The notes under the pieces were generated by a model. The model was not told where the DNA came from, searched no databases, and saw only the letters and a list, made by a program, of their open reading frames with translations. Shown one piece after another: positions 4,447 through 44,617 of a stretch of 57,807 bases of DNA. The position numbers and the translations under genes were made by a program. Source of the stretch: an uncultured Gammaproteobacteria bacterium (GTDB taxonomy: Bacteria; Patescibacteriota; Microgenomatia; Daviesbacterales; UBA10151); assembly GCA_964422835.1 (NCBI GenBank), contig CAYRCR010000004.1:1-57807 (forward strand), given 5' to 3'. Every line of letters starts with the position of its first letter. Positions within the stretch are counted from its first letter, which is position 1.

Positions 4447-6133
4447 CATCCAGGATACTATTGCCCCGGAAAGCTTGGAACTTGATTTTAACCATCTCCG
4501 GCTAAATCAGACATTGAACCGCACATTTTTTGTATCAGGCTATCCCCGCTTTGTTGAGCCAAACTGGCTGGAGCCATTAATAGATTTTGAACACTCTCTG
4601 CGTATTTCCATGTTTATCTATCCCAGTAAATCAGCCGGAGTATTGGAAGATTTAAAGCGGAAAATTGCCGAGATGGAAGCCACTATTCAAACAGACACAG
4701 AACGCGGCCGGGAAGTTGACCCTTCGGTTTTGGCCAGTTTAGAAGACGCGCAGGAACTCCAGGCCCAACTGGTACGCGGTGCGGAACGCTTTTTTGAATA
4801 TAGCCTTTATGTCACAGTCCCGGCGGGCACGCCCGGCGAGCTAAACAACATTTCACAACTTGTTTCCTCAACACTGGGCAGTATCTCTATTACTGCCAGG
4901 CCCGCTACTCTGGAGATGAACGACGGTTTTACCTCCACCATCCCTTTAGGCGAGGATCCTCTTTACCTCGTCCATAATATGGATACCACCTCCCTGGCCA
5001 CCACTTTTCCTTTCACCACCTCCGAGTTGACTTCGCCTACCGGCGTAGTCTATGGGATCAACGAGCATAATGACTCCCTGATAATTTTTGACAGGTTTTC
5101 CCAGGAAAATGCCAATTCTGTAATTCTCGCCACATCCGGGGCCGGCAAATCCTATTTTGTTAAATTGGAAGCTCTCCGGTCTTTAATGCTGGGAGCCGAG
5201 GTGATTATTGTTGACCCGGAACGGGAGTATGTTAATTTGGCAACAGCCATTGGGGGTGACTACATCAACTTTTCCACCTCCTCGCCGGTCAAAATCAATC
5301 CATTTGACCTACCAAAAATGGAAACCAGCGAAGAAGATGAGCTGGGCCGCAAGATATTATCTTTAACCGGGTTTTTAAAACTGGTGCTGGGCGACTTGAC
5401 TCAAAACGAGGCTGCCCTGCTGGACCGGGCTCTAAATACCACCTACCGGCAAAAGGGCATAGTAGCGGGCAAACCTTATGACAAAATTGAACCGCCTTTG
5501 ATGGAAGATTTATATAAAGTGCTTTTAGGCATGGAAGATGCAACTTCCCAGGGTCTGGCCGCCAGGCTGGAACGGTTTATTAAAGGATCGCTGGCCGGCA
5601 TTTTCTCTTCCCGCTCCAATATTGAAATTAAAAATCAATTAACTGTCTTTTCCGTGCGGGACTTGCCTGATGCCCTCCGGCCGCTGGCAATTTACTTGAT
5701 CCTGGATTATATCTGGACCAAAATCAGGCATACACAAAAAAAGAGAATCCTGATTGTGGATGAAGCTTGGTATCTAATGAAATACCCCGACTCTGCCAGC
5801 TTCCTTGTCGAAATGGTCAAGCGCGCCCGCAAATATTTTCTGGGGGTTACTACCATCAGCCAGGATATTGAGGATTTTTGGGGGGCAAACCACGGCAAGG
5901 AAATTATTGCCAATTCCTCAATGCAAGTGCTTTTTAAGCAGGCTCCGATTTCCATTGAAAAGATCGGCGAGACGTTTAATTTATCACAAGGGGAGAAACG
6001 TCTGCTGCTTTCTGCCGGGGTGGGCAGGGGTTTGTTTTTTGCCGGCAATATCCATATTGCCATGAGAGTTGTGGCATCAGACGAAGAGCATAAATTGATT
6101 ACCACCAACCCAACGGAAATTTTAGGAAAATGA
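4439..6133 (+). CDS. VirB4/TraC/PrgJ-like T4SS ATPase
   Basis: Walker A 'ATSGAGKSYF' and Walker B 'ILIVDEAWYL' are present. I prefer the ATG at 4439, which is preceded by GGAGGA, over the 4418 ORF start in the track. Confidence 0.85.
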   Translation: MNNIQDTIAPESLELDFNHLRLNQTLNRTFFVSGYPRFVEPNWLEPLIDFEHSLRISMFIYPSKSAGVLEDLKRKIAEMEATIQTDTERGREVDPSVLASLEDAQELQAQLVRGAERFFEYSLYVTVPAGTPGELNNISQLVSSTLGSISITARPATLEMNDGFTSTIPLGEDPLYLVHNMDTTSLATTFPFTTSELTSPTGVVYGINEHNDSLIIFDRFSQENANSVILATSGAGKSYFVKLEALRSLMLGAEVIIVDPEREYVNLATAIGGDYINFSTSSPVKINPFDLPKMETSEEDELGRKILSLTGFLKLVLGDLTQNEAALLDRALNTTYRQKGIVAGKPYDKIEPPLMEDLYKVLLGMEDATSQGLAARLERFIKGSLAGIFSSRSNIEIKNQLTVFSVRDLPDALRPLAIYLILDYIWTKIRHTQKKRILIVDEAWYLMKYPDSASFLVEMVKRARKYFLGVTTISQDIEDFWGANHGKEIIANSSMQVLFKQAPISIEKIGETFNLSQGEKRLLLSAGVGRGLFFAGNIHIAMRVVASDEEHKLITTNPTEILGK

Positions 6134-6134
6134 T

Positions 6135-8300
6135 ATGGCAGTCCTTGACCTCAAAAACATTGAACCTAATATTCTGCGCAAAACCCTAGATCTGGTTGAA
6201 CTTTACAATAAAAATAGCAGATTTAGGGAAACCTTTGATAAAAATCTTCCCAATAAATGGGCTACTTTCCGTGGTTTACCTCTTAAAACCTATATCAAAG
6301 TATTAACCACTACCACCAGGTATAAACGGTATTTTAATGAGATCAAAAAAAATTCCGAGGCCACTAAGGAGTTATTTTTTAATTTCTATAAAGATCCATC
6401 GGGTTATGCCAAATTGCACAGGGATTTTACCCTCAACCAATTTACATCCGGACTTACGAAAGAGGAGTTAGCCTTGGCTAAACAAATCGAAGAAGTACCT
6501 CAAAAAAGTGAGGGGCATAAAAAGCTGGTCTCCAGACTGCATGATAAAAGTACCGGGCAGAGTCTTACCTCCTCCATTAAGAAAATTTTAGGACAAAAGG
6601 AGGAAGAGGGGCAAATTACTGAATTGGAAGATGTTGTAAAAGAAACCGTAACCCCAACCCAAACCCCTTCCCAAATAGAAAGTGCAGAAGTTCCAGTGCT
6701 ACGCGGTAGCCCAGGATTCCAGATGCCATCCTTCGTCAAAAATTTAGCTTCAGGTGCCAAAATTTTGGCTAGGAAGTTAATCGTTAAATTTGCCCCGAAT
6801 ATTTTTTCCGGCACAATTGGGGGTCTTGTTGGCAGTGCGCTCTTTGGCGTCAGAGGCAGCTTAGTCGGTGCAGGTATTGGCCTAGTCTTCCCCAACGCTT
6901 TAAAAAACAGTGTCTTACGGGGATTTTTAGGAGCAAGCACTAAAGCCGTAGTTGGGACAGGCACAAAAGCTGCCGGGGCTGCAGCAGTAAGGTCTGGTCT
7001 TCTGGCAGCAGGTGCGGGAGGAGGCCCGGTCGGGTGGGTTGCTACCATCGGAGTAACACTGGCTACCAGCAAGACAGTCCGCAATGTGGTAATCGGGATA
7101 ATCGGAGGCCTTTTTATTCTACCTTTAATCTTGGGCTTAAACAAACAACTGGCATTTTTTCCTCCTCCCGGAGCAGTTGAGACGGCCGTCCTTCCTCCGG
7201 GATATCTTCCTCCGGGGTCTTCCGAGCCGTCTTCTGATATTTCCTCCTGCCAGTTTGTCCGAAGTGATCATAGCCCCAAAGGCGCTTCCTATCAAAGCAC
7301 ACAACTACTTGCTTACTTTCAGGAAGCTTCAAATTTAACAGGTATCCCCCCGGCTCTTTTGGCAGCTTTTATGAGGGTTGAATCCCCCGGGCTTACTTCT
7401 TACACCGACGAGGCCCTGTCAAGATACCAATGTGCAGAAAGCCCTACCGGAGCTTTAGGGGTAATGCAAATCCAGCCTGCCGGTACTGTCGGCCACTCCC
7501 CGGGAGGTGTGGCCCAGGGGGCAAAACTTTTAGGGCTTACCTACAACAACCTGACCCGGGCGGATTTTTGTGACATCCGCACAAGTATCATCATGGGCGC
7601 CGGTTTTATGCTTTATAAAATGGGTGTAACTTCCTGGGATCCTGCCTGGACAGGAGATAAACAAATGATTGACAAACTGGTCACAGGTTATTATGGATGC
7701 CTAAATTACGGCGGCGGCGATCCGACCAAATGCACCGGCCCTTACAACTATGGGGATGACGTCTGGGAGAGTATCCAAAATTGTAAACCGGCTGCCCCAT
7801 TACCCCCATCTTCTGCCACTATCTCCTCATGCCCGATTCCGGGAGGGGTAGCAACCTGTGGCAGCCTTAACACTTCCAGGGCAAGTTGCAGCCATTGCGG
7901 GGCAGGCTACGAACCATATACCACAGCCTTTTGCCCTCCACCCTGGGGTAAAGCCGGTTACGACGGGACCCAGTACGCTCTTGATATTGGCGGAACTTCC
8001 GGCCAGGAATTTTTCTTACCAACAATTGACGGCCGTGTTATACAATGGACATACATCAGTGAATTGGGTGGTACTAATGGGCAAATTCAAAAATACATCG
8101 GCAAAAACGCCATTGGCGACTCATATCTGCTTTATTTCCATCATACCCAAAGTGGCAGTGGTAACGGGAAATCCGGAATCTCCGGGGATTTGGCAGGACA
8201 AATTTGCCTGGGATGCAATATTGGCAATACCCACCTCCATGTACAATTGGCTGACGGATCAGGCAGTTGGCTGGATAGCGCACAATATTTTTGCAAATAA
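6135..8300 (+). CDS. T4SS-associated bifunctional cell-wall hydrolase (lytic transglycosylase SLT domain plus M23/LytM-like C-terminal domain), PrgK/VirB1-like
   Basis: SLT-like 'AAFMRVESPG...GALGVMQIQP' is present. The C-terminus carries M23-like 'YALDIGG...LLYFHHTQ...GNTHLHVQL'. The central region is Gly/Ala-rich and hydrophobic. Confidence 0.7.
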   Translation: MAVLDLKNIEPNILRKTLDLVELYNKNSRFRETFDKNLPNKWATFRGLPLKTYIKVLTTTTRYKRYFNEIKKNSEATKELFFNFYKDPSGYAKLHRDFTLNQFTSGLTKEELALAKQIEEVPQKSEGHKKLVSRLHDKSTGQSLTSSIKKILGQKEEEGQITELEDVVKETVTPTQTPSQIESAEVPVLRGSPGFQMPSFVKNLASGAKILARKLIVKFAPNIFSGTIGGLVGSALFGVRGSLVGAGIGLVFPNALKNSVLRGFLGASTKAVVGTGTKAAGAAAVRSGLLAAGAGGGPVGWVATIGVTLATSKTVRNVVIGIIGGLFILPLILGLNKQLAFFPPPGAVETAVLPPGYLPPGSSEPSSDISSCQFVRSDHSPKGASYQSTQLLAYFQEASNLTGIPPALLAAFMRVESPGLTSYTDEALSRYQCAESPTGALGVMQIQPAGTVGHSPGGVAQGAKLLGLTYNNLTRADFCDIRTSIIMGAGFMLYKMGVTSWDPAWTGDKQMIDKLVTGYYGCLNYGGGDPTKCTGPYNYGDDVWESIQNCKPAAPLPPSSATISSCPIPGGVATCGSLNTSRASCSHCGAGYEPYTTAFCPPPWGKAGYDGTQYALDIGGTSGQEFFLPTIDGRVIQWTYISELGGTNGQIQKYIGKNAIGDSYLLYFHHTQSGSGNGKSGISGDLAGQICLGCNIGNTHLHVQLADGSGSWLDSAQYFCK

Positions 8301-8806: not shown

Positions 8807-9265
8807 ATGAGTAATTTAAAAAAACTGGTGATTGCAGTAATTGCCATAATCGGGGCTATTTTAATAATTATTTCCCAGCGGGGTTTATACTCCCAGCCTG
8901 TCTCCCAAATACCCCAAACAACCCCAACCCCCCAAACAACCTTAGATGAAAATCCCAAAGTTGTTTCAACTAATCCCGACCCATTGGATGGCATTACCCT
9001 CTTACCTAATCAAACTATTGAAATTACTTTCAATAAGCCTCTGGAAAATGTCGGCGAGTTTAAGTACCAACTTGACCCGGCTGTAAACATCAATGTTAAA
9101 TTATCCAATGATAGAAAAACTGCAACCATCACTCCTGTGACTACTTATAAACTGGGTGCCGGATTTACCATATTTATCAAAACAGATTCTAAATTCGACG
9201 GGGGTAAAAGGCTCGATCATGAGTTGATTTACCATTTAAATACCATCGGCTACAAAGGGGTTTAG
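8807..9265 (+). CDS. Membrane-anchored Ig-like domain protein, paralogue of 8300..8794
   Basis: An N-terminal TM helix is followed by 'VVSTNPDPLDG...IEITFNKPLENVGEFKYQLDPA', the same architecture as the upstream gene. Confidence 0.55.
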   Translation: MSNLKKLVIAVIAIIGAILIIISQRGLYSQPVSQIPQTTPTPQTTLDENPKVVSTNPDPLDGITLLPNQTIEITFNKPLENVGEFKYQLDPAVNINVKLSNDRKTATITPVTTYKLGAGFTIFIKTDSKFDGGKRLDHELIYHLNTIGYKGV

Positions 9266-10377
9266 AGATTAACGGGCATAATAATATAAGAAAGATCTTC
9301 CTCCCCGACAGGTTTAAACATGGCCGCTGATAAATTACCGGACAACTCAATACTGACTTGACCGCTCGTAGCAGCAGTCAGGACGTCCTGTAAAAATTTT
9401 GTATTGAAGGCAATTTCCAACTCTTCCCCTTCGGCAGACGCCTCGATTTCCTTTTTTTGGCTGCCCAATTCCTTGGCTTCAGAGGAGAGGATTAATTTAT
9501 CTTTTTTATTTTGTAATTTAACTACATTGGCTTCACTGCGGGCCAGTACCGACGCTAATTTAACCGCTTTTAAAAATTCTTCCCTATCCACTATTACCCT
9601 GGCTTTAAAATTTTCCGGAATAATTTTTTCCCAGGCCGGAAACTGGCCATCAATCAGTCTGGTTGAAACCTGGGTTGTCCCAAAAGAAAAAACCATCTGG
9701 TTGCCATCATCAGACGTGGCGATTTTTACTCCATCAGGTTCACCCCCCAAAATATTCTTTTCTTCCAAAATTAGCCTTATTACCTCCTCCAGTGTCCGGC
9801 GCGGCACCAAAGCGCGGAACAGTGCAGATTCCCCTGTCGGTACTAATTTATGGGCAAGGCGATAGCCATCCGTTGCCACAAGCTGCAGTTTTTTACCTTT
9901 AATTTCCAGTAAAATTCCTGTTAAAATCGGCCTGGAATCATCGGCGGCCGCGGCAAAAGTTACCTTTGGTAAAGACTTTACCAAAACCTCTGTTTCAATT
10001 ATCACAGCTTCTTTACCGGAGAGTGGAATTGAGGGAAATTCAGAGGCTGAAATACCATTTAAAGTAGAAGAAAAAGTTGGAGTGGAAATTTCTATATTCT
10101 GACCGTCGGATGAAAATTCCAGTTTTTCCCCGGTTAAATTTCCTACCATCTCCACCAAAGTTTTGGCCGGTACCGTCACCTCCCCCTCTTCAATAATTTC
10201 TGCTGATATTTTCTTGACTACCCCTATTTCTAAATTAGTGGCGGAGAGCTTCAATTTTCCCTTTTCGGCGCTGATTAAAATATTGCCCAAAACCGGCAAA
10301 GTAGATCTGACACCTATTGAGCGTGCTACCGAGGAAAGGCTGGGGAAAAAATCCTGCTGAAGAATACTAAATTTCAT
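9262..10377 (-). CDS. dnaN: DNA polymerase III beta sliding clamp
   Basis: The 371-aa product starts 'MKFSILQQDFFPSLSSVARSIGVRSTLPVLGNILISAEKGKLKLSATNLEIG', typical of DnaN. It lies downstream of dnaA. Confidence 0.93.
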   Translation of the reverse strand: MKFSILQQDFFPSLSSVARSIGVRSTLPVLGNILISAEKGKLKLSATNLEIGVVKKISAEIIEEGEVTVPAKTLVEMVGNLTGEKLEFSSDGQNIEISTPTFSSTLNGISASEFPSIPLSGKEAVIIETEVLVKSLPKVTFAAAADDSRPILTGILLEIKGKKLQLVATDGYRLAHKLVPTGESALFRALVPRRTLEEVIRLILEEKNILGGEPDGVKIATSDDGNQMVFSFGTTQVSTRLIDGQFPAWEKIIPENFKARVIVDREEFLKAVKLASVLARSEANVVKLQNKKDKLILSSEAKELGSQKKEIEASAEGEELEIAFNTKFLQDVLTAATSGQVSIELSGNLSAAMFKPVGEEDLSYIIMPVNL

Positions 10378-10829
10378 TCCTGATCCTTTCTAGTAGTGAC
10401 AAAACGGTGAACTTCTTCTTCGGTGACTTTAATCAACCTAAAATGGATCCGGCCATTTTGTACTAAATTTTTAATATGTTTCTCTTCGTCTGTCAAGGTA
10501 GGAAAATTACCGGATTTCACTTCTATAAAATCAATCCGCTCGTTGTTTTTAATCCCAATAAAATCAATCGGCCAGCCTAAAGGAATAATCCGGTCATAAT
10601 CCAAGCGGAGCTCGGCATAGGTTAAAAGTTCGGCCATTTTACCTTTTTGAGGATTAATTGAACCCTGAATGGTTTGTAAAACTCTAACAGGCAGATCCTG
10701 AACATTTTTATATAAACCAATTAAATCTGTTGGAATTTCCTGGTTTCCTTTTCTATGTAACCTGCCAAATAAATAGGCAACTAAAACAATTAAACATATA
10801 ACAACTAAATAGACCCAATTAGTATCCAT
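10374..10829 (-). CDS. Membrane-anchored endonuclease related to archaeal Holliday-junction resolvase (COG4741/Endonuc_Holl-like)
   Basis: An N-terminal TM helix is followed by 'PIDFIGIKNNERIDFIEVKSGNFPTLTDEEKHIKNLVQNGRIHF', a D...E-x-K nuclease core. Its stop overlaps the dnaN start by 4 nt. Confidence 0.5.
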   Translation of the reverse strand: MDTNWVYLVVICLIVLVAYLFGRLHRKGNQEIPTDLIGLYKNVQDLPVRVLQTIQGSINPQKGKMAELLTYAELRLDYDRIIPLGWPIDFIGIKNNERIDFIEVKSGNFPTLTDEEKHIKNLVQNGRIHFRLIKVTEEEVHRFVTTRKDQE

Positions 10830-11020
10830 TATTTATTTATCCACAACTTACGTGAAATTACTTTTATATCTATAATCAGTAGTAGTACTAATAGATATGG
10901 TGTATATGTGGGCATATTAAAAAAACAGGCTTAATTTTTGCATTAATTTCGTGTGTAAAAAGTATACCATAAATGTGGATATCTTGGTGGATAAGTTGTG
11001 TATTGGTGTGGATAAAATCA
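10830..11020. promoter_or_regulatory. DnaA-box cluster, a candidate oriC segment, in the AT-rich spacer downstream of dnaA
   Basis: The boxes are TTATCCACA at 10838..10846, TGTGGATAT at 10974..10982, GGTGGATAA at 10987..10995 and TGTGGATAA at 11008..11016. The surrounding sequence is strongly AT-rich. Confidence 0.6.
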
Positions 11021-12364
11021 TTATTGTAAAGATTGTCTGACTTCCAGTAGTATTCTTTGGAGTTCCCTGTCTTTATCCCTGTTTTTGGAAATTTTTTCCA
11101 CTCCATGCATAATGGTGGTATGGTCCCGTCCCCCTAAAAGTTCACCGATCCGCTCGTAAGGCAATTTACACTCTTGGTAAAGGAGGTACATAATAAGATG
11201 CCGGGGTAAGACTAATTCCTTCTTGCGCCTTGGCCCTATTATATCAGCCATTTTAATATTGAAATACTGGTTAATTCCTGAAATAACTTTTTTATAATCT
11301 AATTTTTGCCCCGCCGCGGTTGGATGTCCAAGCAGTTTTTTTACTTCATCAAAACAAACAGGTTTGCCTGAAAGTTTTAAAGTCTGGATAATTTGGATAA
11401 GTTTTCCCTCAAGCTCCCGGGCATTGGTGGGCATAGCCTCGGCGATAGCAGTTAAACATTCTTCGGCAATAGATTCCTTTCGTTCGGCACATTTGGCACG
11501 GAGGATCGCAACCCGGGTATCAAAATCCGGATTTTGAATATCAACCATTAGTCCTCCCTGGAAACGCGAAGCCAGGCGGCTTTCCAATTTTTGCATTTCC
11601 CCGGGTGGCCGATCCGATGTTAAGACTATTTGGGCGTTTTTTGCCTGGAGCTCATTAAATGTATGGAAGAACTCTTCCTGGGTGGAATCACGCCCGGCAA
11701 TAAACTGTACATCATCAATTAAAAGCAAATCACAGGACCGGTATTTATTTCTAAAAGGATTAGTTTTTTTAGTTTGGATGCTCTCAATAAGATCATTAGT
11801 AAAACGCTCGGAAGAGCAATAGATGATTTTTATGCCGGGATTCTTTTTGGCTAAACTATTGCCGACCGCCTGCATTAAATGGGTCTTGCCTACTCCGGTT
11901 CCGCCGTAAATAAATAGAGGGTTATAAGAAACACCCGGATTTTGGATGACTGCTTGAGCTGCGGCATAGGCTAAATTATTGGAAAGCCCCACGACAAAAG
12001 ATTCCATAGTATATTTTGGATTTAAATTTAATACGGCAGTTTGGGACTTGTTTGGAGTAAGCGCGAAATCTATATCCATTAAATCTTCTTTTTGGATAAG
12101 GCCCGGGTTGACTTTAAACTGCACCTTTATTTCAGGGCCAAAAACTTCCCCCACGGCTGAACCTAAAACATTTGACAGTTTGGTTGAAAGCTGCTCTTTA
12201 ATATAGGCAGATTGTACTTCCACTGTTAAAACCCCATCCCCTGCCTCGGCTTTTGTCTGGGCGAACCAGGCCTTAAAATTAGAGGTAGAAACCTGGTTTT
12301 TTATTATTTCCAGAACTCTTCTCCAGTTATCCACAGTATGTAATTTAGTGGATAAGTTATCCAC
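11021..12364 (-). CDS. dnaA: Chromosomal replication initiator protein DnaA
   Basis: AAA+ Walker A 'GGTGVGKTHL', 'LLIDDVQF' and the C-terminal DNA-binding helix region are present. The start is ambiguous. The ORF opens with GTG at 12364, and an in-frame GTG at 12334 would give 'MDNWRRVLEIIKN'. Confidence 0.93.
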   Translation of the reverse strand: MDNLSTKLHTVDNWRRVLEIIKNQVSTSNFKAWFAQTKAEAGDGVLTVEVQSAYIKEQLSTKLSNVLGSAVGEVFGPEIKVQFKVNPGLIQKEDLMDIDFALTPNKSQTAVLNLNPKYTMESFVVGLSNNLAYAAAQAVIQNPGVSYNPLFIYGGTGVGKTHLMQAVGNSLAKKNPGIKIIYCSSERFTNDLIESIQTKKTNPFRNKYRSCDLLLIDDVQFIAGRDSTQEEFFHTFNELQAKNAQIVLTSDRPPGEMQKLESRLASRFQGGLMVDIQNPDFDTRVAILRAKCAERKESIAEECLTAIAEAMPTNARELEGKLIQIIQTLKLSGKPVCFDEVKKLLGHPTAAGQKLDYKKVISGINQYFNIKMADIIGPRRKKELVLPRHLIMYLLYQECKLPYERIGELLGGRDHTTIMHGVEKISKNRDKDRELQRILLEVRQSLQ

Positions 12365-12366
12365 AT
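12328..12366. promoter_or_regulatory. Three DnaA boxes overlapping the dnaA 5' end (candidate autoregulation or oriC part)
   Basis: The boxes are TTATCCACA at 12328..12336, AGTGGATAA at 12348..12356 and TTATCCACA at 12358..12366. A further TTATCCAC lies at 13263..13270, upstream of rpmH. Confidence 0.55.
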
Positions 12367-12447
12367 GGCAATAGAGCTAAAATATCACGAAGTGGATCAA
12401 GTTTTTTCCAGGTTGATAGTTTTTAGTTCATCAAGTATAATTTCTTC

Positions 12448-12840
12448 ATGCCGAAAAGAGTTTATCAATTCGACTCGATTTTTCAACTTTTTCCCAAAGT
12501 AAAATTAGTTTATTTGTTTGGATCCAGGGCTGTTGGTCAAGAAGGTCCCCTAAGTGATTATGATTTTGCAGCCTACATAGACGAACAGGATGTTAAAAAA
12601 AGATTTAATGTAAGGTTAGATTTATTAGACAAGCTTTCCCGGGAGTTAAGAACTGATAATATAGACCTGTCCGTTCTAAATGATATTCAAAGCCCGGAGT
12701 TAAAATATTCGATCATATCTAGTGGCCGGTTGATTTATAAGAAGGAGCCTTACAAGGTGTTGATTGAACCACGGATCTTAAGTGAATATTTTGATTTTAC
12801 TGATAGTCTCCAAAGATATGGTTTAACTAAAAATATATGA
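12448..12840 (+). CDS. mntA: MntA-type minimal nucleotidyltransferase antitoxin
   Basis: The GSX10DXD motif 'GSRAVGQEGPLSDYD' is present. The gene overlaps the downstream DUF86 gene by 4 nt. Its first 7 codons duplicate the rpmH start. Confidence 0.8.
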   Translation: MPKRVYQFDSIFQLFPKVKLVYLFGSRAVGQEGPLSDYDFAAYIDEQDVKKRFNVRLDLLDKLSRELRTDNIDLSVLNDIQSPELKYSIISSGRLIYKKEPYKVLIEPRILSEYFDFTDSLQRYGLTKNI

Positions 12841-13259
12841 CGGACAATTTTATTATTGAATCCAAGATAAGCTCGATTCAAAAATATCTGCAAATTTTAA
12901 AAGGATTCCAAAACTATTCTCAGAAACAAATAGAAGGAGACGTCCATTTAAGGGGGTCAGCTGAACGTTATCTTTATTTACTGACTCAGTCCGTGCTTGA
13001 TTTGGCAGAGGCTATAATTTCTTTTAAAGATTTACGCCGCCCGCAAACATATAGCGAGTCTTTTGATATTTTACATGAGGAGAAACTTATTTCCCCGGAC
13101 TTAACAGAAAAGCTGGTGAAAATGGCCAAATTTAGAAACATCATTTCCCGTGATTATGAGGATTTGGATTTTACAATTATTTATGACGTTTTACAAAAGC
13201 ATTTGCAGGATATTGAAGAATTTTTATCTGTGGTAGAAGATAAATTAAACATTCATTAG
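12837..13259 (+). CDS. hepT: HepT/DUF86 HEPN-domain toxin homologue with a variant active-site motif
   Basis: DUF86-like helical protein paired with MntA. The motif region reads 'FRNIISRDYEDLD', with Arg where the Rx4HxY consensus has His. Confidence 0.75.
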   Translation: MTDNFIIESKISSIQKYLQILKGFQNYSQKQIEGDVHLRGSAERYLYLLTQSVLDLAEAIISFKDLRRPQTYSESFDILHEEKLISPDLTEKLVKMAKFRNIISRDYEDLDFTIIYDVLQKHLQDIEEFLSVVEDKLNIH

Positions 13260-13305
13260 TTTTTATCCACTGGTGAACTTATTTTAATTATGTTAGAATT
13301 TCTCC

Positions 13306-13443
13306 ATGCCGAAAAGAGTTTACCAGCCCAAAAAATTAAAAAGGCTAAGAAAGCATGGTTTCCGCGAAAGGATGCAAACTTCTGATGGGAAAAAAGTTCT
13401 AGCCAGAAGAAGGGCTAAAGGCCGGAGGAAGTTAAGTGTATAG
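13306..13443 (+). CDS. rpmH: 50S ribosomal protein L34 (absent from the supplied ORF track)
   Basis: My own translation gives '[45 protein letters not shown]' (45 aa) with TAG at 13441..13443. Its position upstream of rnpA is canonical. Confidence 0.9.
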
Positions 13444-13523
13444 CGTTCAGGGTATAGCGTATAGTTAAAACAATAATTGTTTACAACTAAGCGCTAGACA
13501 CTAATAACTATACCCTATTTTGT

Positions 13524-13895
13524 ATGCTTCCTAAAAGTAAAAGATTAAATCTCAAGAAGGATTTTAAATGGGTGGCATCTGGACAAAAAATAGAAGATTC
13601 CCTAATGAAGATTTTTTACAGATCTTGTGATCCCTCGACTCAGTTTACCCTGAGCTTGTCGAAGGGCTCAGGACCTTCAGTTGGGATTGCATTATCAACC
13701 TCGGTTTTTCGAAAAGCAGTTGATCGAAACAGGGCAAGACGCTTAACTTCCAAAGCGTTTGAGGGACTTTATGATAAAATACCCCGGAACCTGAATATTG
13801 TGGCTATGCCCAAGGCCGGAATTCTGGATAAAAAGTCTGGGGAAGTAATAAAGGACTTGGAAGAATTACTAATGAAAAACGATCTTTTGAAGTGA
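13524..13895 (+). CDS. rnpA: RNase P protein component
   Basis: 'AVDRNRARRLTSKAF' matches the RNR motif region, and the rpmH-rnpA-yidD-yidC synteny is standard. The gene contains a hairpin-module insertion at 13647..13672. Confidence 0.85.
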   Translation: MLPKSKRLNLKKDFKWVASGQKIEDSLMKIFYRSCDPSTQFTLSLSKGSGPSVGIALSTSVFRKAVDRNRARRLTSKAFEGLYDKIPRNLNIVAMPKAGILDKKSGEVIKDLEELLMKNDLLK

Positions 13896-13987
13896 GAAAT
13901 GAGAAGTGAGAATTTGAAATCTTGAATTCAAGAATTCTTGACATCAAAAATTCAATATCAAAAATATCCCACATCTCACGTCAAAAC
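13884..13987. repeat. MITE-like palindromic repeat, copy A (full length, overlaps the rnpA stop codon)
   Basis: The terminal inverted repeats are 'CTTTTGAAGTGAGAAATGAGAAGTGAGA' and 'TCCCACATCTCACGTCAAAAC'. The palindromic core is 'CTTGAATTCAAGAATTCTTGACATCAA'. Related copies lie at 24854, 44626 and 46723. Confidence 0.75.
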
Positions 13988-13995
13988 ATCTAATT

Positions 13996-14196
13996 ATGAA
14001 AATACTTGTCATTATTTTAATAGACTTTTATAGAAACTTTTTATCCTTTGACCGGGGGTTATTGTCATTCCTCTCTCCGGGTGGGGCTTGCAGGCAGTCT
14101 CCTACCTGCTCTATGTATACAAGACAAATGGTTCTAAAGTATGGTACAGTTAGAGGGTTGTATTTGGGAGTTAAAAGAATATTATCATGCAGGTAA
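13996..14196 (+). CDS. yidD: Membrane protein insertion efficiency factor YidD
   Basis: 'CRQSPTCSMYTRQMVLKYGTVRGLYLGVKRILSC' is the YidD signature. The gene lies immediately upstream of yidC. Confidence 0.85.
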   Translation: MKILVIILIDFYRNFLSFDRGLLSFLSPGGACRQSPTCSMYTRQMVLKYGTVRGLYLGVKRILSCR

Positions 14197-15041
14197 TCGG
14201 AGATATTTTTAATCTTTTTTTCTACGGCCCTATTTTAAATGTATTAGTGGGGATTTATCATGCTTTGAATTTTGTCCATCTTCCCGGGGCATTGGGCTTT
14301 GCAATTATTCTAATGACTGTTTTAATCAGACTGGCAGTTTGGCCGCTAATGGCCTCTCAAATGAAATCTGTTAAAAAAATGGCCGAACTTAAACCCCACA
14401 TTGATGCCCTGAAGGAAAAACATAAAGGTGATAAACAAGCTTTTGCCAGCGCCCAGATGGCCCTTTATAAGGAACATGGGGTTAATCCGGCCGGCGGGTG
14501 TCTCCCCTCTTTATTACAGTTCCCGATTATTATTGCCCTGTATCAGACAATATTTGCTTTTTTCTCCGATGGGTCGGGTTTGGAGAAAATTAACCAGGCT
14601 TTATACCTGCCTGCCTGGCATTTGCCATCTGCCCCGGACTTAACCTTTTTTGGCCTGAATTTGGCTACCAAGCCTTCGGATTTTTTGGTTTCCGCTTTTA
14701 TTCTGGTCCCGCTTGTTACGGCCGGATTGCAATTTGCCCAGTCAAAAATGATGGCTCAAAAACCTGTGGCGGTTTACAAAACAGATAAACCAAAGGAAAT
14801 AAAAGAAAAGGGGAAAAGCGAGGATGCTATGGCAGCCATGCAGGGCCAGATGATGTATATGATGCCTTTAATGGTGGGATGGTTTGCTTTCCAGTTCCCC
14901 ATAGGCATTGCCCTTTACTGGAACACTTTTACTATTTTGGGAATTGTCCAGCAACATAAGATTTCGGGCTGGGGTGGATTGGAAGGATGGATTAAAAAAG
15001 TGCAAAGTTTAACCCCTCGGCTTCGCTCGGGACAAGAGTGA
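14187..15041 (+). CDS. yidC: Membrane protein insertase YidC (short form)
   Basis: 'LIRLAVWPL', 'HGVNPAGGCLP.LLQFPI' and 'ALYW..' match the YidC/Oxa1 core. Synteny with yidD and jag supports the call. Confidence 0.9.
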   Translation: MQVIGDIFNLFFYGPILNVLVGIYHALNFVHLPGALGFAIILMTVLIRLAVWPLMASQMKSVKKMAELKPHIDALKEKHKGDKQAFASAQMALYKEHGVNPAGGCLPSLLQFPIIIALYQTIFAFFSDGSGLEKINQALYLPAWHLPSAPDLTFFGLNLATKPSDFLVSAFILVPLVTAGLQFAQSKMMAQKPVAVYKTDKPKEIKEKGKSEDAMAAMQGQMMYMMPLMVGWFAFQFPIGIALYWNTFTILGIVQQHKISGWGGLEGWIKKVQSLTPRLRSGQE

Positions 15042-15099
15042 AAAGTGTAAAGTTTTTCTTCATTGACTGATCCCAAGATTTAATCTATACTTACTCCTC

Positions 15100-15612
15100 A
15101 TGGAGGATAAAGTTTCAGAAGTTCTGGAAAATATACTTGGCATGATGGCCCTGGAAGGGTCTTTTGAAGTTGAGGAAAACAAAGAAGATGTCAGGGCAAC
15201 TATTGAAACAGCCGATCCGGGGAGATTAATTGGTTTCCGTGGTGAAACCCTGGATGCCCTGCAGCTTCTGGTCAACCAGATTGTTTCCCGCCAAAACCCG
15301 GACAGTGATTTCAAGAGAGTTGTGATAGACGTGGAAGGTTGGAGAAAGAATAAAGAGGAAGATTTAGCTAAACGCGCCAAGGGTTGGGCCCAGGAGGTTA
15401 AGGAATCGGGCAAAGAGATGGAGCTTGAGCCCATGCCTTCATGGCAGCGGAGAATTGTTCACTTGGCAATTGAAGAAGTAGAAGGAGTAACCTCAGAAAG
15501 TATTGGTGAAGGCTGGGATAGACATCTGGTGATTAAAACTGCCGTGGAAAAATCTGCTCCCAAGAAACCTGCTAAAAAATCTTTCAAAAAAACCCCAAAG
15601 GCTGTAGAATAA
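15100..15612 (+). CDS. jag: Jag/KhpB-like RNA-binding protein (KH plus R3H domains)
   Basis: 'LIGFRGETLDALQLLV' is KH-like and 'MPSWQRRIVHLAI' is R3H-like. The gene lies downstream of yidC. Confidence 0.8.
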   Translation: MEDKVSEVLENILGMMALEGSFEVEENKEDVRATIETADPGRLIGFRGETLDALQLLVNQIVSRQNPDSDFKRVVIDVEGWRKNKEEDLAKRAKGWAQEVKESGKEMELEPMPSWQRRIVHLAIEEVEGVTSESIGEGWDRHLVIKTAVEKSAPKKPAKKSFKKTPKAVE

Positions 15613-17353: not shown

Positions 17354-19792
17354 ATGATAAACCTTTCACGAAACACACCAATAGCTTTAGTCGTGGGAGC
17401 GGCAGGGTTTATCGGTTCCAGTGTGGCAGATAAACTCCTGGAAAAGGGTATCCAGGTAGTGGGGGTGGATAATTTATCCACCGGGAAAAAAGAAAACCTT
17501 GATACCGCTTCCCGCTCTAAAAAGTTCCACTTTCTAAACCAGGATATGGGCAGTTTGCTGCCGGTTGATTTGCCCAGGCTTGACTATGCCTATTTTATTA
17601 TTTCCGAAACATCTGATAGGGACGATTACTGTGGGGCTTTGGATAATTTTTTAAAGGTTTGCAATAATTTCTTACCCAAAATTGTGCTTACTTCATCGAT
17701 TGATCTATATGGGGAAAAGGGCGAAAGTGCGGTTTTGCAAATGGCGGAAAGACGCATAGCAGAATTTACCAAAGAGAAAAACGCCAATGCCAGGGTGGTG
17801 AGACTGGCCTCTGTTTTTGGACCAAGGATGCATTTTAGGGGAACCGACCCGATTTTGAAACTGATTTTTGCCGCAGCCACGGATGCTTTACAAAAAGAGC
17901 CCACGCCTCTGGATTTTACCACCCGTGCGCTGTATATTGCTGATGTTGCGGACTTACTTCTTAAATCAACCCTGCATGGGGCAACCGCCCAAAAAATCTA
18001 CGACGGCGCGAGGCTTGTTCCTGTGAAAGTAGCAGAAATTAAACAGGTGCTGCTTGATCCTGTCTGGCATGAGATGAAAAAGTTTGAGCCGACAGAACTT
18101 CCTCCCTGGAATAGTCCAAATTTGGAAAAAACCGTATCGGAGCTTTCCTGGAAACCTAAAGCCAAACTGGTTGAAGCTTTGAAAAGCACGTTGCATTTTC
18201 TGCTGAATAATCCCGGATATTTGGAAGCTCAAGGTGGCGCAGGCTGGCCGGAGCAGGAAGAAAAGGCTGACAACGAGAAAAACAAAGAAAGGGAACAACT
18301 CATAAAAGAATTCAGGATGGGTGAGAGGGAAGTAAAAAAAAATGTGGACAAAATCAATATGGAAGGGCCTTTTAAGTTTATGCTTACTCTGGTTATTTTA
18401 GCTTTATTTACTGCAGCAGTTATTTACCCGGCAGGCGCCCTTGCCTGGAATTACATTTCAATAGGGCAATATACAAAGCAGGGGGAGAATGCCTCCGGGG
18501 AACATAATTTTGCCAATATGCTTTTCCTTTTTGAAAAGGCAGATAAAGCTGAAGCTGAAGTAAAAGGAGCCCTGGCTTCTTTTAAAAGGTTAGATGTCGG
18601 GGGAATATTGCCGGGAAATATCACTTCAGACCTTGATGTTTTATCTGCCAAACGAAGTACCGCCAGGGGAGAAAGGGAAATTATGGAAGCCTTGCAGGTT
18701 ATTTCAGGTGGGGGAAAAGGTGATGAAATAAGCCGGCACCTGGAACGGGCGGATGCTTATTTTGCCAAAGCAGAGCAAAAAATAAGTAATTTAGGCGGTG
18801 ATACATTCTATATCGAGAGGGTAAGGAAAGCGGTTGCATTTTTACCCAAAATAATTCCGCAGTCGGGGGAGAAAATTTACCTGATAGTTTTGTTTGATGA
18901 AAATAATTTGAAAATCGGAGGAGGGGAAATTAAATCATTATCAGAAGCTAAATTTAAGGACGGAAAACTTCTGGAAATAAAGGAAGATAGTATGAATTTG
19001 AATAAACAGGTTTTATCTGTCATGGCCGAGCCTGATTTCCCAAGCTCCGCTAAAACAATTTTGGCACTCTTTCAAAGCCAAACCGGTCGGGCAGCGGATG
19101 GAGTGATAGCCTGGGACAACGTTGCAGCCCAGGATTTAAATGAGTTATTTTATCTTCCGGGCAGGAACTTCTTATTTGCCCTGTGGGGGCCAAACGAAGC
19201 ATTTGCCGGTAAACACACGGTTGCATACATGGTAGATCCGGAGATAGAAAGTTATCTGTTATCCGAAAATTTTGGGGGCCGGATGTTTCTGGAACCAAAA
19301 GAAAAGGATGGGATGAGGCGGGATTTTTTGTCAGTGTTGACGGAAGGAGTACCTCTTCACAAAATTGGGGTGGAGAAAATAATTAATACTGACGGAAAGG
19401 TTACAACAAAACTGGTTTTAAGTAGTTTGGGCGCAAATTTTGGCAAGGTTAGGGTATACCTTGAGGTGGGGGAGCAGCTTATAAACTTAAATGCCAAGTC
19501 TTTGTCCGATTTTGGCAGGGTAGGGTATGAGTTTGAAAATGTGGGAGCAGAGAATTTAGTTTTAGAGTTTACCAGCCAAAAGAAGGCGGATTTTACAAAG
19601 GGAAAGCTGGATTATATTCTTGATATAGCCAAACAAGTGGGGGCGGGCAGTACTCCTTTGGAATTTAAGCTGCGCTATCCGGCAGGGTATAGTGCAAAAT
19701 CTGGAGGGGGAGAGGCTAATATTCCCCAGGAACTTTCCTTTACCTCGGATCTTGCCCAAGATAGAGACTTTGACATTATCCTTGCGCAGTAG
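17354..19792 (+). CDS. Fusion protein: N-terminal NAD-dependent sugar epimerase/dehydratase, a TM helix, and a large C-terminal domain of about 450 aa and unknown function
   Basis: The Rossmann motif 'VVGAAGFIGSSV' opens the protein. A hydrophobic helix 'FKFMLTLVILALFTAAVIYPAGALAW' lies near residue 350. I recognise no motif after that. Confidence 0.6.
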   Translation: MINLSRNTPIALVVGAAGFIGSSVADKLLEKGIQVVGVDNLSTGKKENLDTASRSKKFHFLNQDMGSLLPVDLPRLDYAYFIISETSDRDDYCGALDNFLKVCNNFLPKIVLTSSIDLYGEKGESAVLQMAERRIAEFTKEKNANARVVRLASVFGPRMHFRGTDPILKLIFAAATDALQKEPTPLDFTTRALYIADVADLLLKSTLHGATAQKIYDGARLVPVKVAEIKQVLLDPVWHEMKKFEPTELPPWNSPNLEKTVSELSWKPKAKLVEALKSTLHFLLNNPGYLEAQGGAGWPEQEEKADNEKNKEREQLIKEFRMGEREVKKNVDKINMEGPFKFMLTLVILALFTAAVIYPAGALAWNYISIGQYTKQGENASGEHNFANMLFLFEKADKAEAEVKGALASFKRLDVGGILPGNITSDLDVLSAKRSTARGEREIMEALQVISGGGKGDEISRHLERADAYFAKAEQKISNLGGDTFYIERVRKAVAFLPKIIPQSGEKIYLIVLFDENNLKIGGGEIKSLSEAKFKDGKLLEIKEDSMNLNKQVLSVMAEPDFPSSAKTILALFQSQTGRAADGVIAWDNVAAQDLNELFYLPGRNFLFALWGPNEAFAGKHTVAYMVDPEIESYLLSENFGGRMFLEPKEKDGMRRDFLSVLTEGVPLHKIGVEKIINTDGKVTTKLVLSSLGANFGKVRVYLEVGEQLINLNAKSLSDFGRVGYEFENVGAENLVLEFTSQKKADFTKGKLDYILDIAKQVGAGSTPLEFKLRYPAGYSAKSGGGEANIPQELSFTSDLAQDRDFDIILAQ

Positions 19793-34510: not shown

Positions 34511-34544
34511 ATCAGTATTGTAACAGAAATGATATAATTTGGGC

Positions 34545-35735
34545 ATGAAGAAAATCTCTCTTTTGGTTGTTGTTTTGGCAATACTGTCAGGAATTGCCTT
34601 TTGGCGGGTTTTGCCGAGACTTTTGCAAGGAGGAAGTATTAGTCAAACTAATTTAATTGTTTGGGGGTTTGATGAGGAAGAAACAGTAAAACCACAGCTT
34701 ATTCTATACCAACAAAACAATCCCGGCGTAAATATTACATATGTCAAACAATCACTCTTAAATTATGTGCCCCGTGTACAGACTCAAATTAGTGCTATGC
34801 CGAAAGTTATGAGTGCCCCGGACATATTTTTATTCCATAGCTCATTTTGGCCGGCTTTTTTGCCCCTCCTGCAGGAAGTACCGGATGCTGTTACTGTTTT
34901 GCCGATTGTCAGCCAAACTTTAACGGCTGACAAAAAAATATATGGTTTGCCAAAAGAGGTATCAGGGCTGGCAATGTTTTATAACATTGATATTTTAAAA
35001 GGGGCAGGTGTTGGGGTGCCCAGGAGCTGGTCAGAGTTTACCGAGACGGCGAAAGCTGTAACAGTTAAAGACTCGGAGGGCAAAATCCAGACAGCAGGTG
35101 CAGCCTTGGGAACGACAGAAAACGTTTCTTTTTGGCCGGAGATTTTGTCCCTGTTATTTTTGCAACAACCCGGGGCAGATCTTTCCTCTCCCTCGACTTC
35201 AGCCGGAGCAGATGTGTTGAAATTTTACACTTCCTTTGTGCTTGACCCGCAGAAAAAAGTTTGGGATACAACCCTGCCTTCTTCTTCAGAAATGTTTGCC
35301 CAGGGAAGGTTGGCTTTTTATTTTGCTCCAAGAAGTGAGGTACAAGTTTTAAATGAAACTGCTCCGGGTTTAAATTTTGCTACGGCTGTGGTGCCGCAAC
35401 TGTCCGGGAGGGTCATAACCCAGGGAGGAGTTTGGGTTTGGGGGGTGTCAAAAACAACCCAACACTCTGCGGAGGCTTGGGATTTGGCAAAATTTTTAAG
35501 TTCGGGAAATCCTCCTGATTTAAAAGATCCGAAGCTTTCAAGCTTTGCTCTCCAGGGGCCATATTATAAAGGATGGTATTTAAATTCGGGTGTTGGATGG
35601 ATCAATGATGAAATGATTAAAAATTATGCCGGGGCCGTCAATGGAGTTTTGCAGGGCAAGGATGCTTTGTCTTCCTTGCAGGTAACCCAAGCCTCCATAA
35701 AAGAAACTTTAAAAACTTATGGTGTGGCAAAATGA
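34545..35735 (+). CDS. Extracellular solute-binding protein (ABC transporter family 1-like)
   Basis: A signal/anchor 'MKKISLLVVVLAILSG' is followed by 'LIVWGFDEEE...NPGVNITYVKQ', typical of sugar-binding SBPs. No adjacent permease or ATPase genes. Confidence 0.6.
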   Translation: MKKISLLVVVLAILSGIAFWRVLPRLLQGGSISQTNLIVWGFDEEETVKPQLILYQQNNPGVNITYVKQSLLNYVPRVQTQISAMPKVMSAPDIFLFHSSFWPAFLPLLQEVPDAVTVLPIVSQTLTADKKIYGLPKEVSGLAMFYNIDILKGAGVGVPRSWSEFTETAKAVTVKDSEGKIQTAGAALGTTENVSFWPEILSLLFLQQPGADLSSPSTSAGADVLKFYTSFVLDPQKKVWDTTLPSSSEMFAQGRLAFYFAPRSEVQVLNETAPGLNFATAVVPQLSGRVITQGGVWVWGVSKTTQHSAEAWDLAKFLSSGNPPDLKDPKLSSFALQGPYYKGWYLNSGVGWINDEMIKNYAGAVNGVLQGKDALSSLQVTQASIKETLKTYGVAK

Positions 35736-41362: not shown

Positions 41363-41659
41363 ATGGCAGAAAGATTTGAAATAAAGAGAACATCGGAAGA
41401 AATAGCATCGGTATTTGATGCTACCAAAGCGCAATTTGAAAGTCTCAAAAAAGGGCCAACTGATTCTGCGATGGGAGAAGTTGTTGGATTCGGACTGGAT
41501 GCAACATTTGCGGGGATATTAATGGAGGCCAGATTGAGAGAAAGAATAGAAGTACTGCGGTTTTTGCAGGGCGAGGAAAATGAAATTTCCAGTTTAATTT
41601 CGGTAATGAATTATATGAAAACAAAAGAATCCGCTAGTGTTGGTAAAGAAGAAGGATAA
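41363..41659 (+). CDS. groESL-embedded cassette ORF c4 (98 aa), unknown function
   Basis: I prefer the internal ATG at 41363 ('ACATGGCAGAAAGATTTG', giving 'MAERF'), which lies 4 nt after the c3 stop. Confidence 0.55.
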   Translation: MAERFEIKRTSEEIASVFDATKAQFESLKKGPTDSAMGEVVGFGLDATFAGILMEARLRERIEVLRFLQGEENEISSLISVMNYMKTKESASVGKEEG

Positions 41660-41662
41660 AGT

Positions 41663-42049
41663 ATGGCAAATCAAGAAAGAAATTTTAGAGCAGCAGAGCC
41701 AGAAGGTATTAGAGAATCAATGACAAGTCTTAGGGATAGAATGGACGAGATAGTATCTTTTGTAGAACGAATGGAAATGTCGCTTGCCATCCCCCTAGTG
41801 TGTAGTGGAAGGGTGCCACTTACTGACTTGCAAACCTGGCAAAAATTAGGGTATGAACATGCAAGGCATTTTACTGATGTTTTGGATGCGCTAACTGAAG
41901 AGGTGTTTGAACAGCCGGCAGAAGCTACGATAATAGGTAATCCTCCGGAGGCCATAGAAGTTGGTGGACGGAAAATTCCTGTAAATGTGGCAGATTCTTT
42001 CAAGGGGTTGAAACCGCCTGTAATTGGAAGAGGGGATTTTAATATTTAG
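41663..42049 (+). CDS. groESL-embedded cassette ORF c5 (128 aa), unknown function, C-terminal '...VIGRGDFNI' module
   Basis: It is preceded by 'AAGGATAAAGTATGGCAAA'. Its C-terminus 'GRKIPVNVADSFKGLKPPVIGRGDFNI' parallels c1 'DRRIPLNVADDFKGLKLPVIGRGDFNI'. Confidence 0.6.
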   Translation: MANQERNFRAAEPEGIRESMTSLRDRMDEIVSFVERMEMSLAIPLVCSGRVPLTDLQTWQKLGYEHARHFTDVLDALTEEVFEQPAEATIIGNPPEAIEVGGRKIPVNVADSFKGLKPPVIGRGDFNI

Positions 42050-42065
42050 AAGGGATAAAATATGG
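42017..42065 (+). repeat. 49-bp exact direct repeat (c5 3' end plus initiation module), partner at 40584..40632
   Basis: The sequence is identical to 40584..40632. Confidence 0.9.
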
Positions 42066-42394
42066 GAGAAATATCAGACGGCGAAAAAGCATTAACAGAT
42101 CTGCAAAAAATTGATCTTGTGCGTCAGGTTGATCGTGCAGAGACGCGGGTAAAAGTTGATATTAAAGCTATAGTAGGAGCTCCTTTTCATGCAGATTTGT
42201 TGCTGCCGCTGGTTTTAAGGCTTAAGCATTTGGAAATGTTTGGGCTCGGTTTAGGGCTTGGTTGTGGAGATTTGCCTGCCAGATTTGCGGAAAATGGTTT
42301 CCTTTTGGGAACAGGAATAAAAGTAAGAGATGAAGCCGCTATTTTACGAGAGAGGGAAGAGAGAGCGAAAATGAGGGAGGTAAATAGCCCGTAA
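42062..42394 (+). CDS. groESL-embedded cassette ORF c6 (110 aa), unknown function
   Basis: It is preceded by 'AAGGGATAAAATATGGGAGAA' and contains a 'GLGLGLGCG' segment. Confidence 0.55.
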   Translation: MGEISDGEKALTDLQKIDLVRQVDRAETRVKVDIKAIVGAPFHADLLLPLVLRLKHLEMFGLGLGLGCGDLPARFAENGFLLGTGIKVRDEAAILREREERAKMREVNSP

Positions 42395-42413
42395 TTTTTT
42401 AAAAGGATAAAAT

Positions 42414-42977: not shown

Positions 42978-42994
42978 GTTTTTTAAAGGGATAA

Positions 42995-44617
<1,623 letters not shown>

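Follow-up and report, generated by a model that had tools for sequence, protein, structure and literature searches.

The closest described system to the locus studied here is the HepT/MntA toxin–antitoxin pair of Shewanella oneidensis (SO_3166/SO_3165; PDB 5YEP and 6M6U; PMC7641770), an antitoxin-first two-gene operon whose antitoxin carries a GSX10DXD motif and whose toxin has a poly-AMPylated tyrosine. We analysed a homologous pair, mntA–hepT, in contig CAYRCR010000004.1, a stretch of 57,807 nucleotides (the window) from a groundwater genome of the Candidate Phyla Radiation (CPR). The DnaA protein of this genome is closest, at no more than 69% identity, to proteins named Candidatus Daviesbacteria. 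The two systems are alike in gene order, adenylyltransferase motif and modified tyrosine. The window pair differs in three ways: rpmH, the gene for ribosomal protein L34, is the source of the core promoter and first seven residues of its MntA; its HepT allele carries Arg where the RX4H motif has His; and its location between dnaA and rpmH is shared by a CPR clade.

In the canonical arrangement, dnaA diverges from an rpmH–rnpA–yidD–yidC–jag cluster next to oriC. The window retains this gene order, together with a cluster of DnaA boxes. In contrast to the canonical arrangement, the dnaA–rpmH spacer of Daviesbacteria is a variable cargo site and holds the toxin–antitoxin pair in many lineages. 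The HepT/MntA module is itself of a known kind, and its new feature is a 5′ end captured from rpmH. It appears reasonably probable to us that the pair had long resided in the spacer when an illegitimate recombination event joined codon 7 of rpmH to approximately codon 11 of mntA.

Direct repeat at the mntA and rpmH starts

The repeat search returned a single outlier family in the window, a 32-nt direct repeat whose two copies are 29/32 identical and lie 858 nt apart, start to start. Copy A (12436–12467, TATAATTTCTTCATGCCGAAAAGAGTTTATCA) heads mntA and copy B (13294–13325, TAGAATTTCTCCATGCCGAAAAGAGTTTACCA) heads rpmH. Each comprises a −10 hexamer, a 6-nt spacer and 20 coding nucleotides that begin with ATG and specify MPKRVYQ, codons 1–7 of rpmH. 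In copy A the hexamer is TATAAT (12436–12441), followed by TTCTTC and the ATG at 12448. In copy B it is TAGAAT, preceded by TGT as in an extended −10 element and followed by TTCTCC and the ATG at 13306. Neither ATG is preceded by a Shine–Dalgarno (SD) sequence. The original prediction had recognized the direct repeat, at a length of 29 bp, as well as the seven shared codons, the hexamers ending 6 nt before each start and the lack of an SD sequence. All of them hold, and the repeat extends 3 nt further to the left, so that it takes in the whole −10 hexamer.

The repeat is neither a chance match nor a product of assembly. With three mismatches allowed, copies A and B are the only matches to the 32-mer in the 57.8 kb, and none of 100 dinucleotide-preserving shuffles contained two (expected chance matches 0.00). 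Beyond the repeat, the flanking sequences score no better than shuffles in local and semi-global alignments (p = 0.1–0.25), so the repeat is sharply bounded on both sides. A longer, decayed duplication of the whole spacer (DnaA box, GATCA block and promoter) was also considered and was rejected on these same alignments. Fourteen contigs, assembled from different samples and drawn from NCBI, JGI, ENA and Logan, carry both copies with the same three differences between them, and contigs from three runs span the two copies without joints, which argues against an assembly artefact. One of the matches to the window sequence is NCBI contig MFEC01000034.1 (assembly GCA_001777495.1). In haplotype L009, which is 99.2% identical to the window, the rpmH copy reads TAT at one of the differing positions, as do the mntA copy and the rpmH genes of relatives, and the copies were therefore 30/32 identical when they were made. 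The 12 non-coding nucleotides match at 10 positions, in a stretch that varies freely between lineages.

A third start in the window bears on whether any duplication is needed. A VanW-like gene on the minus strand (34538–34553) begins TTTCTTCATGCCCAAA (MPK...), and all 15 of its specified bases agree with copy A where 0.01 such matches are expected; either a start context favoured for leaderless expression or an older, partial copy may account for it. A CATG palindrome contains both this ATG and that of a divergent solute-binding-protein gene, which has its own TATAAT 6 nt upstream. Pyrimidine-rich spacers also recur before leaderless-type starts in this genome. These observations would fit convergence of mntA and rpmH, helped by chance, on a common context (−10, TTCTYC, ATG CCN AAA). 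The identity, however, continues through codons 4–7 (AGAGTTTAYCA), which encode the L34-specific RVYQ that is found in no MntA homologue, and the chance expectation for the full 32-mer is as given above. Convergence is effectively refuted, and we give it almost no weight.

The direction of copying can be read from the two genes. L34 begins MPKR(T/V)(Y/W)QPKK in every relative. By contrast, none of 119 MntA homologues, some up to 82% identical to the window protein, begins MPKRVYQ; their native N-terminus is variable and approximately three residues longer, and the close homologues have 133 residues rather than the 130 of the window protein. The suggestion that homologues be checked for this prefix thus gave a clear answer: the resemblance to L34 is not general to MntA, and the N-terminus in the window is derived. 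Copy A also carries GTT at Val5, the state of rpmH in the window lineage. Taken together, the conserved L34 start, the Val5 codon and the other N-termini of MntA homologues indicate transfer from rpmH to mntA, with copy B the probable original and copy A the probable derivative. The left flank of copy B (TTATGT) resembles those of native rpmH promoters (TTATGC in relative L127 and TTGTGA in L107, with a TGn extended −10), whereas that of copy A shows no such resemblance.

At the right end of copy A, immediately after ...TATCA, the window sequence CAATTCGACTCG can again be matched to mntA of the closest relative, AAATTGACATCG, and residues 8–130 of the window protein align with residues 11–133 of its relatives. 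This alignment leaves room for a microhomology of at most 1–2 nt. The junction would thus fuse rpmH codon 7 to mntA codon ~11 with 1–2 nt of microhomology at ...CA|A..., and the left boundary would lie at the −10 hexamer. The 858-nt spacing equals the length of the unit from mntA codon ~11 to rpmH codon 7.

Upstream of copy A, a TTGATA hexamer (12413–12418) stands 17 nt from TATAAT, forming a predicted plus-strand promoter (12413–12441) that matches the sigma-70 consensus at 11 of 12 positions, the best score in the interval 12250–14250. Because the −35 element lies outside the duplication, the predicted mntA promoter is a hybrid. The idea that the pair captured the expression signal of rpmH through a leaderless start is a fair reading at the level of sequence. 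In relatives, native mntA has its own −10 hexamer 6–7 nt before the ATG and a −35 element 17 nt further upstream, so an exchange from one −10 to the other preserves the promoter architecture. Judged from these motifs, the swap brought in a consensus −10 hexamer, another spacer and a different initial stretch of 21 transcribed nucleotides, and it left the mode of expression as it was.

The in-place rebuilding that we favour would start from an ancestor with mntA–hepT between dnaA and rpmH, inherited vertically in the Daviesbacteria clade and repeatedly lost. The window lineage would have kept the pair and recently rebuilt its 5′ end from the neighbouring rpmH, with the native −10, 6-nt spacer and first ~10 codons of mntA replaced by the 32-nt rpmH core. 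On one route, tandem duplication of the 858-bp unit would create the rpmH(1–7)::mntA(11–) junction behind a copied rpmH core promoter, and a deletion between the native mntA −10 and the duplicated rpmH −10 would then remove the upstream copy; a deletion between two −10 hexamers would automatically keep the native −35 at 17 nt. Alternatively, one step of templated repair, or a template switch between the −10 hexamers and back, could give the same product. An in-frame outcome that keeps the promoter would be expected because loss of antitoxin expression would be lethal while the toxin is active.

In the rebuilt operon, RNA polymerase would bind TTGATA-17-TATAAT and initiate at or next to the A of the ATG at 12448, producing a leaderless mntA–hepT mRNA that would share its first ~21 nt with the rpmH mRNA. 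Translation of hepT would be coupled to that of mntA through an ATGA overlap, and MntA would AMPylate HepT on Tyr107. The rpmH gene would be expressed from its own copy; retention of that core promoter would be expected because an AUG inside an mRNA, with no SD sequence before it, would serve poorly as a start.

A comparable case is the rnk–citT junction of the Cit+ lineage in the Escherichia coli long-term evolution experiment, reportedly a promoter capture through local duplication. As there, the donor gene is intact, and a short-range duplication junction would place a gene under signals of its neighbour. Unlike rnk–citT, the window retains 32 duplicated nucleotides, its junction falls inside both coding regions to give a seven-codon N-terminal fusion, the signals are leaderless and no intermediate is seen. 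The locus offers a clear-cut natural instance in which a 32-nt duplication gave a gene the core promoter and translation start of its neighbour. This organism appears to depend on leaderless mRNAs, in which the promoter, the transcription start and the start codon would form one compact, copyable unit. The find is modest and calls for no new mechanism.

The dnaA–rpmH spacer in related genomes

Relatives were taken as the contigs encoding the closest MntA and DnaA homologues. The mntA–hepT pair adjoins the dnaA spacer in the same orientation in L095, L115, L098/L099, L100, L104 and L123, and it lies upstream of rpmH wherever the contig reaches far enough. The closest copy, in L107, is 80% and 87% identical to the window pair; its rpmH starts 25 nt after hepT, and its upstream flank carries the GATCA block of the spacer, although the contig ends before dnaA. 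In all of these relatives MntA is the native 133-residue protein with its own −10 hexamer, and no repeat links the starts of mntA and rpmH. Homologous pairs that are less similar (≤57% identity) do not adjoin dnaA. A search of metagenome contigs with a HepT alignment yielded 13 loci, L115 and L123 among them, and no close relative of the window. Among the matches listed in a scan of genome contigs with DnaA, identity did not exceed 43%, too low for a comparison of empty sites.

The pair appears to be an old resident. Its identities track those of the flanking housekeeping genes, and a deep split appears in the trees of both DnaA (51–56% identity) and the pair (66–72%), separating from the other lineages L115 and L095, the latter a Daviesbacteria metagenome-assembled genome whose DnaA is 52–53% identical to that of the window. 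In a bootstrapped neighbour-joining tree of DnaA, the Holliday-resolvase-like protein and DnaN, L095 is the outgroup to an unresolved radiation in which only L109+L110 is supported. With L095 outside and the pair co-diverging with its host, the most parsimonious history is presence at the locus before the radiation and loss in the lineages with empty sites. As a long-term resident of an origin-proximal spacer in a CPR clade, with repeated loss, added cargo and toxin polymorphism, the pair is material for the study of toxin–antitoxin evolution in reduced genomes.

The original prediction had explained the repeat as a target-site duplication left by entry of the cassette into the dnaA–rpmH spacer. 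The relatives do not support this: their filled sites have a native mntA start and no repeat, and the divergence of the pair parallels that of the host. As in the target-site duplications of transposable and integrative elements, short direct repeats bracket a discrete two-gene cassette. Unlike them, the window has no terminal inverted repeats at 12468 and 13293 and no transposase or integrase among the genes neighbouring mntA–hepT, the repeat is 32 nt long, the supposed insert begins inside mntA, and orthologous cassettes occupy the same site without a repeat. A target duplication of 32 nt is not known to be typical of bacterial elements.

A broader form of insertion deserves more attention. 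An ancestor with an empty site and a leaderless rpmH could have received a 5′-truncated mntA–hepT from a related genome after rpmH codon 7, leaving the rpmH core, from −10 to codon 7, on both sides; copy A would then be the original start with its original −35. Insertion at staggered ends, Campbell-type integration of an 858-bp circle or homology-facilitated illegitimate recombination could each lead there. Empty sites, in which dnaA and rpmH are 70–122 bp apart, do exist in L110–112, L126 and L127, as a proposed comparison of spacers had sought; these sites are too diverged to test the boundaries. They include the relatives closest by DnaA. The dnaA spacer of L126 and L127 contains the native rpmH promoter at the same place as copy A, with the same −35/17/−10/6/ATG architecture: TTGATC-17-TAATCT-TACTCC-ATG in L127, compared with TTGATA-17-TATAAT-TTCTTC-ATG in the context of copy A. 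The G+C content of the pair is 0.34 (G+C at third codon positions 0.31–0.34), compared with 0.40–0.45 in dnaN, dnaA, rpmH, rnpA, yidC and jag; this gap of 7–8 points leans weakly towards insertion, although relatives' pairs are also AT-richer than their flanks, by a smaller margin, and composition is not decisive as a signal of transfer. The locus is moreover variable, and direct repeats bracket other cargo in it.

These same facts weigh against in-place rebuilding, which we still prefer. The nearest relatives by DnaA (66–69%) are empty (L126, L127 and L110) or hold other cargo (L108 and L109), so retention of the pair in the window requires several independent losses within an unresolved radiation. 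Given the shared architecture in L126 and L127, copy A could equally be the original rpmH start. The low G+C of the pair, with its somewhat larger gap than in relatives, counts on this side as well. No tandem duplication and no native-start mntA of more than 90% identity was found. In eight DNA runs, represented by contigs in which rare variants are missed, there were likewise no joints indicating precise deletion, tandem duplication or a native-start mntA. No relative is closer than 69% in DnaA identity to date the event.

Several observations nevertheless make insertion unlikely. All seven related copies of the pair occupy this locus, keep a native 5′ end and lack an rpmH repeat. The pair is ancient and co-diverges with its host, and loss followed by in-frame regain at the identical site is less parsimonious than retention. 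The 10/12 match of the non-coding nucleotides indicates that both copies come from one genome or species, rather than copy B from a divergent donor. The length of the repeat, the lack of terminal inverted repeats and recombinase genes, and the resemblance of the copy B flank, and not the copy A flank, to native rpmH promoters point the same way.

Other cargo in the spacer includes a Bestrophin-like gene in L109, further cargo in L108 and, downstream of hepT, DUF3800, PIN/DUF433 and zf_Tbcl genes in L100, L115 and L104. In L115, a 29-nt direct repeat (27/29; 255–283 and 1133–1161) of the dnaA-proximal block ACTATTAAAAACTAGATCAA brackets a native mntA–hepT pair, and a PIN/DUF433 pair and a 178-residue open reading frame (ORF) lie between hepT and rpmH. 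In L100, direct repeats of ~100 nt with hairpins (5829–5936 and 6879–6980) bracket the DUF3800 gene downstream of hepT; they share a 28-nt stretch of 100% identity, and there is a third copy of the TAGATCA block. The L100 repeats and the extra block suggest that the spacer behaves as a cargo-stacking site.

The brackets around the cargo of L115 and L100, together with the VanW-like start TTTCTTCATGCCCAAA, hint at a more general, and quite improbable, reading in which the dnaA–rpmH spacer is a recurrent cargo-capture site, where newly placed or rearranged genes come to be expressed through duplication of the resident leaderless promoter-plus-start module. Were this so, the 32-nt rpmH core would be a portable leaderless initiation cassette, and synthesis of the pair would be tied to ribosomal protein synthesis, through both transcription and initiation at a 5′-terminal AUG, as a growth-rate-linked switch. 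The find would gain weight only if start-module duplication recurs as the wiring of cargo at this origin-proximal site.

Chimeric antitoxin and polymorphic toxin

The mntA gene (12448–12840, plus strand) encodes a chimeric antitoxin/adenylyltransferase of 130 residues, and hepT (12837–13259, plus strand) a HEPN RNase toxin of 140 residues; the antitoxin gene comes first, and its stop overlaps the hepT start as ATGA at 12837–12840. Both proteins score above the curated NCBIfam equivalog cutoffs for type VII HepT/MntA: MntA reaches 76 bits with MntA_antitoxin and HepT 115 bits with HepT_toxin, each against a cutoff of 60. The corresponding Pfam matches are Polbeta (67.5 bits) and NTP_transf_2 for MntA and HepT-like (101 bits) for HepT. 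By these family models the locus is a HepT/MntA module by descent. A candidate 140-residue ‘MntA’ (P0001) was rejected as merely a TGA read-through from a gene caller using another genetic code.

The GSX10DXD adenylyltransferase motif of MntA and the RX4HXY motif of HepT have been defined previously (PMC7641770). The former is intact in the window protein (G25-S26-(RAVGQEGPLS)-D37-Y38-D39), and G25, S26, D37 and D39 are invariant in 49 homologues. The L34-derived residues lie outside this core. Matches to Pfam and NCBIfam models start at residues 10–16 and alignments to PDB entries at residues 14–15. An AlphaFold2 model of MntA has a mean predicted local distance difference test (pLDDT) score of 86, with 65 for residues 1–10, and places residues 3–13 in helix α1. 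From these starts and the helix start in the model, the seven residues are predicted to be a tolerated N-terminal cap outside the nucleotidyltransferase core, and a ribosomal role for them is improbable.

HepT aligns to S. oneidensis SO_3166 (5YEP_B) over 133 residues, with RNIISRDY in place of RNIAVHDY. Its motif, R100-NIIS-R105-D-Y107, therefore has Arg105 at the position of the catalytic His (H102 of SO_3166) and keeps the AMPylated Tyr. All relatives and minor alleles of the population have the RX4HXY His that the window allele lacks, and the latter, on its sequence, probably does not have full RNase activity. Codon 105 (13149–13151, plus strand) is CGT (Arg) in the window and 11 contigs and CAT (His) in L003, L009, L011 and all relatives, and a toxin active-site polymorphism is thus segregating in the population. 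Between the window haplotype and L009 there are seven single-nucleotide differences in 2.1 kb, five of them in the toxin–antitoxin pair. In hepT these are three nonsynonymous changes (D3N, T90K and R105H) and no synonymous ones; in mntA they are two synonymous changes and no nonsynonymous ones. By these counts, selection on the toxin seems relaxed or altered, and the antitoxin is conserved. In L123 (837–1222), hepT is broken by a frameshift or deletion at approximately codons 52–62 and mntA is intact, which would make it a toxin pseudogene or an assembly error.

The state of the toxin is relevant to what the duplication means. The same structure could be a neutral repair scar in a decaying toxin–antitoxin module, with the repeats serving mainly to predispose the module to clean loss. 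The polymorphic Arg at the catalytic His, the 3/0 and 0/2 ratios of haplotype differences, the broken hepT of L123 and the loss of the pair in several relatives would all fit such decay. The native mntA promoter of relatives is, furthermore, already of the leaderless type, so the swap changed little in kind, and if the two repeats recombined, an intact rpmH would again result, under TTGATA-17-TATAAT. Against this, the chimeric allele is fixed in 14/14 contigs from several studies with no deletion joints seen, mntA is under purifying selection with its motifs intact, and the His allele persists. We regard a neutral scar as possible but doubtful.

Predicted leaderless starts and the origin region

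Leaderless mRNAs are widespread in Actinobacteria (Mycobacterium), Deinococcus and archaea. The window resembles these in having −10 hexamers that end 6–7 nt before the start codon without an SD sequence, a geometry that is enriched genome-wide. Among 61 ORFs in the window, a TANNNT hexamer ends 5–10 nt before the start codon in 25, and SD-like tetramers are rare. The distribution peaks at 6 nt, with 9 genes where ~1.3 are expected per position. In the same set, a second peak comprises 12 genes in which the hexamer abuts the ATG (e.g. TAAAAT-ATG). Leaderless or near-leaderless initiation looks like a general habit of this genome, as judged from these hexamers. Unlike in a fully leaderless habit, SD-like AAGGA/AGGGA sequences are kept at some internal operon genes. 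Four consecutive genes at 41648–43012 (three small genes without a Pfam match, and GroEL) start A(A/G)GGATAAA(A/G)T-ATGG; the SD-like sequence lies 8 nt upstream, indicating SD-led initiation at these genes.

Several searches for other signals were negative. We found no intrinsic terminator on the plus strand between hepT and rpmH, no unusual structure on folding the 5′-most 60 nt of the two mRNAs and of mntA from relatives (z −0.4 to 0.5), and no Rfam family in 10300–15200 (E ≤ 1). Six metatranscriptome runs of the same studies contained no sequence from the dnaA–rpmH locus, and the literature on leaderless initiation in CPR bacteria yielded nothing specific.

The local gene order is dnaN (9262–10377, minus strand), a Holliday-resolvase-like gene (10374–10829, minus strand), dnaA (11021–12364, minus strand, divergent from mntA), mntA, hepT, rpmH (13306–13443, plus strand), rnpA (13524–13895), yidD, yidC and jag. 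The rpmH product is an intact L34 of 45 residues, and the gene has its own −10 hexamer 6 nt upstream. All Daviesbacteria dnaA-proximal spacers, filled or empty, contain a conserved block (A/T)(A/G)GATCA(A/G)..., which lies at 12390–12407 on the plus strand of the window. The DnaA-box core TTATCCAC occurs 11 times in the window, compared with 1.7 expected, and seven of these fall within 10837–13270: three between the Holliday-resolvase-like gene and dnaA (10837–11015), a spacer that is the probable oriC on this evidence, three at the dnaA 5′ end and promoter (12327–12364; boxes at 12327, 12348 on the minus strand, and 12357), and one isolated match. The last (13263–13270, plus strand) lies downstream of the hepT stop and upstream of the −10 hexamer of rpmH and is not present in empty-site relatives. 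An inverted pair of DnaA boxes is located at 17465–17481.

On the minus strand, a predicted dnaA promoter, TTGCCA-18-TAAATT (12332–12371), stops 7 nt short of an in-frame GTG (12334), and this GTG falls within a DnaA box. By this geometry dnaA itself looks leaderless, and the position of its start within a DnaA box suggests autoregulation at the start site. The same arrangement of GTG within a DnaA box is found in L126.

Downstream of rpmH, the 80-nt spacer before rnpA (13444–13523) forms a long predicted hairpin (−22.2 kcal/mol, z = −2.9), whereas rpmH and rnpA of relatives abut or overlap. Between rnpA and yidD, a palindrome-rich stretch of 77 nt (13887–13963) also occurs, with 2–4 differences, in unrelated-looking contigs from several groundwater and soil runs, and could represent a small repetitive or mobile element.

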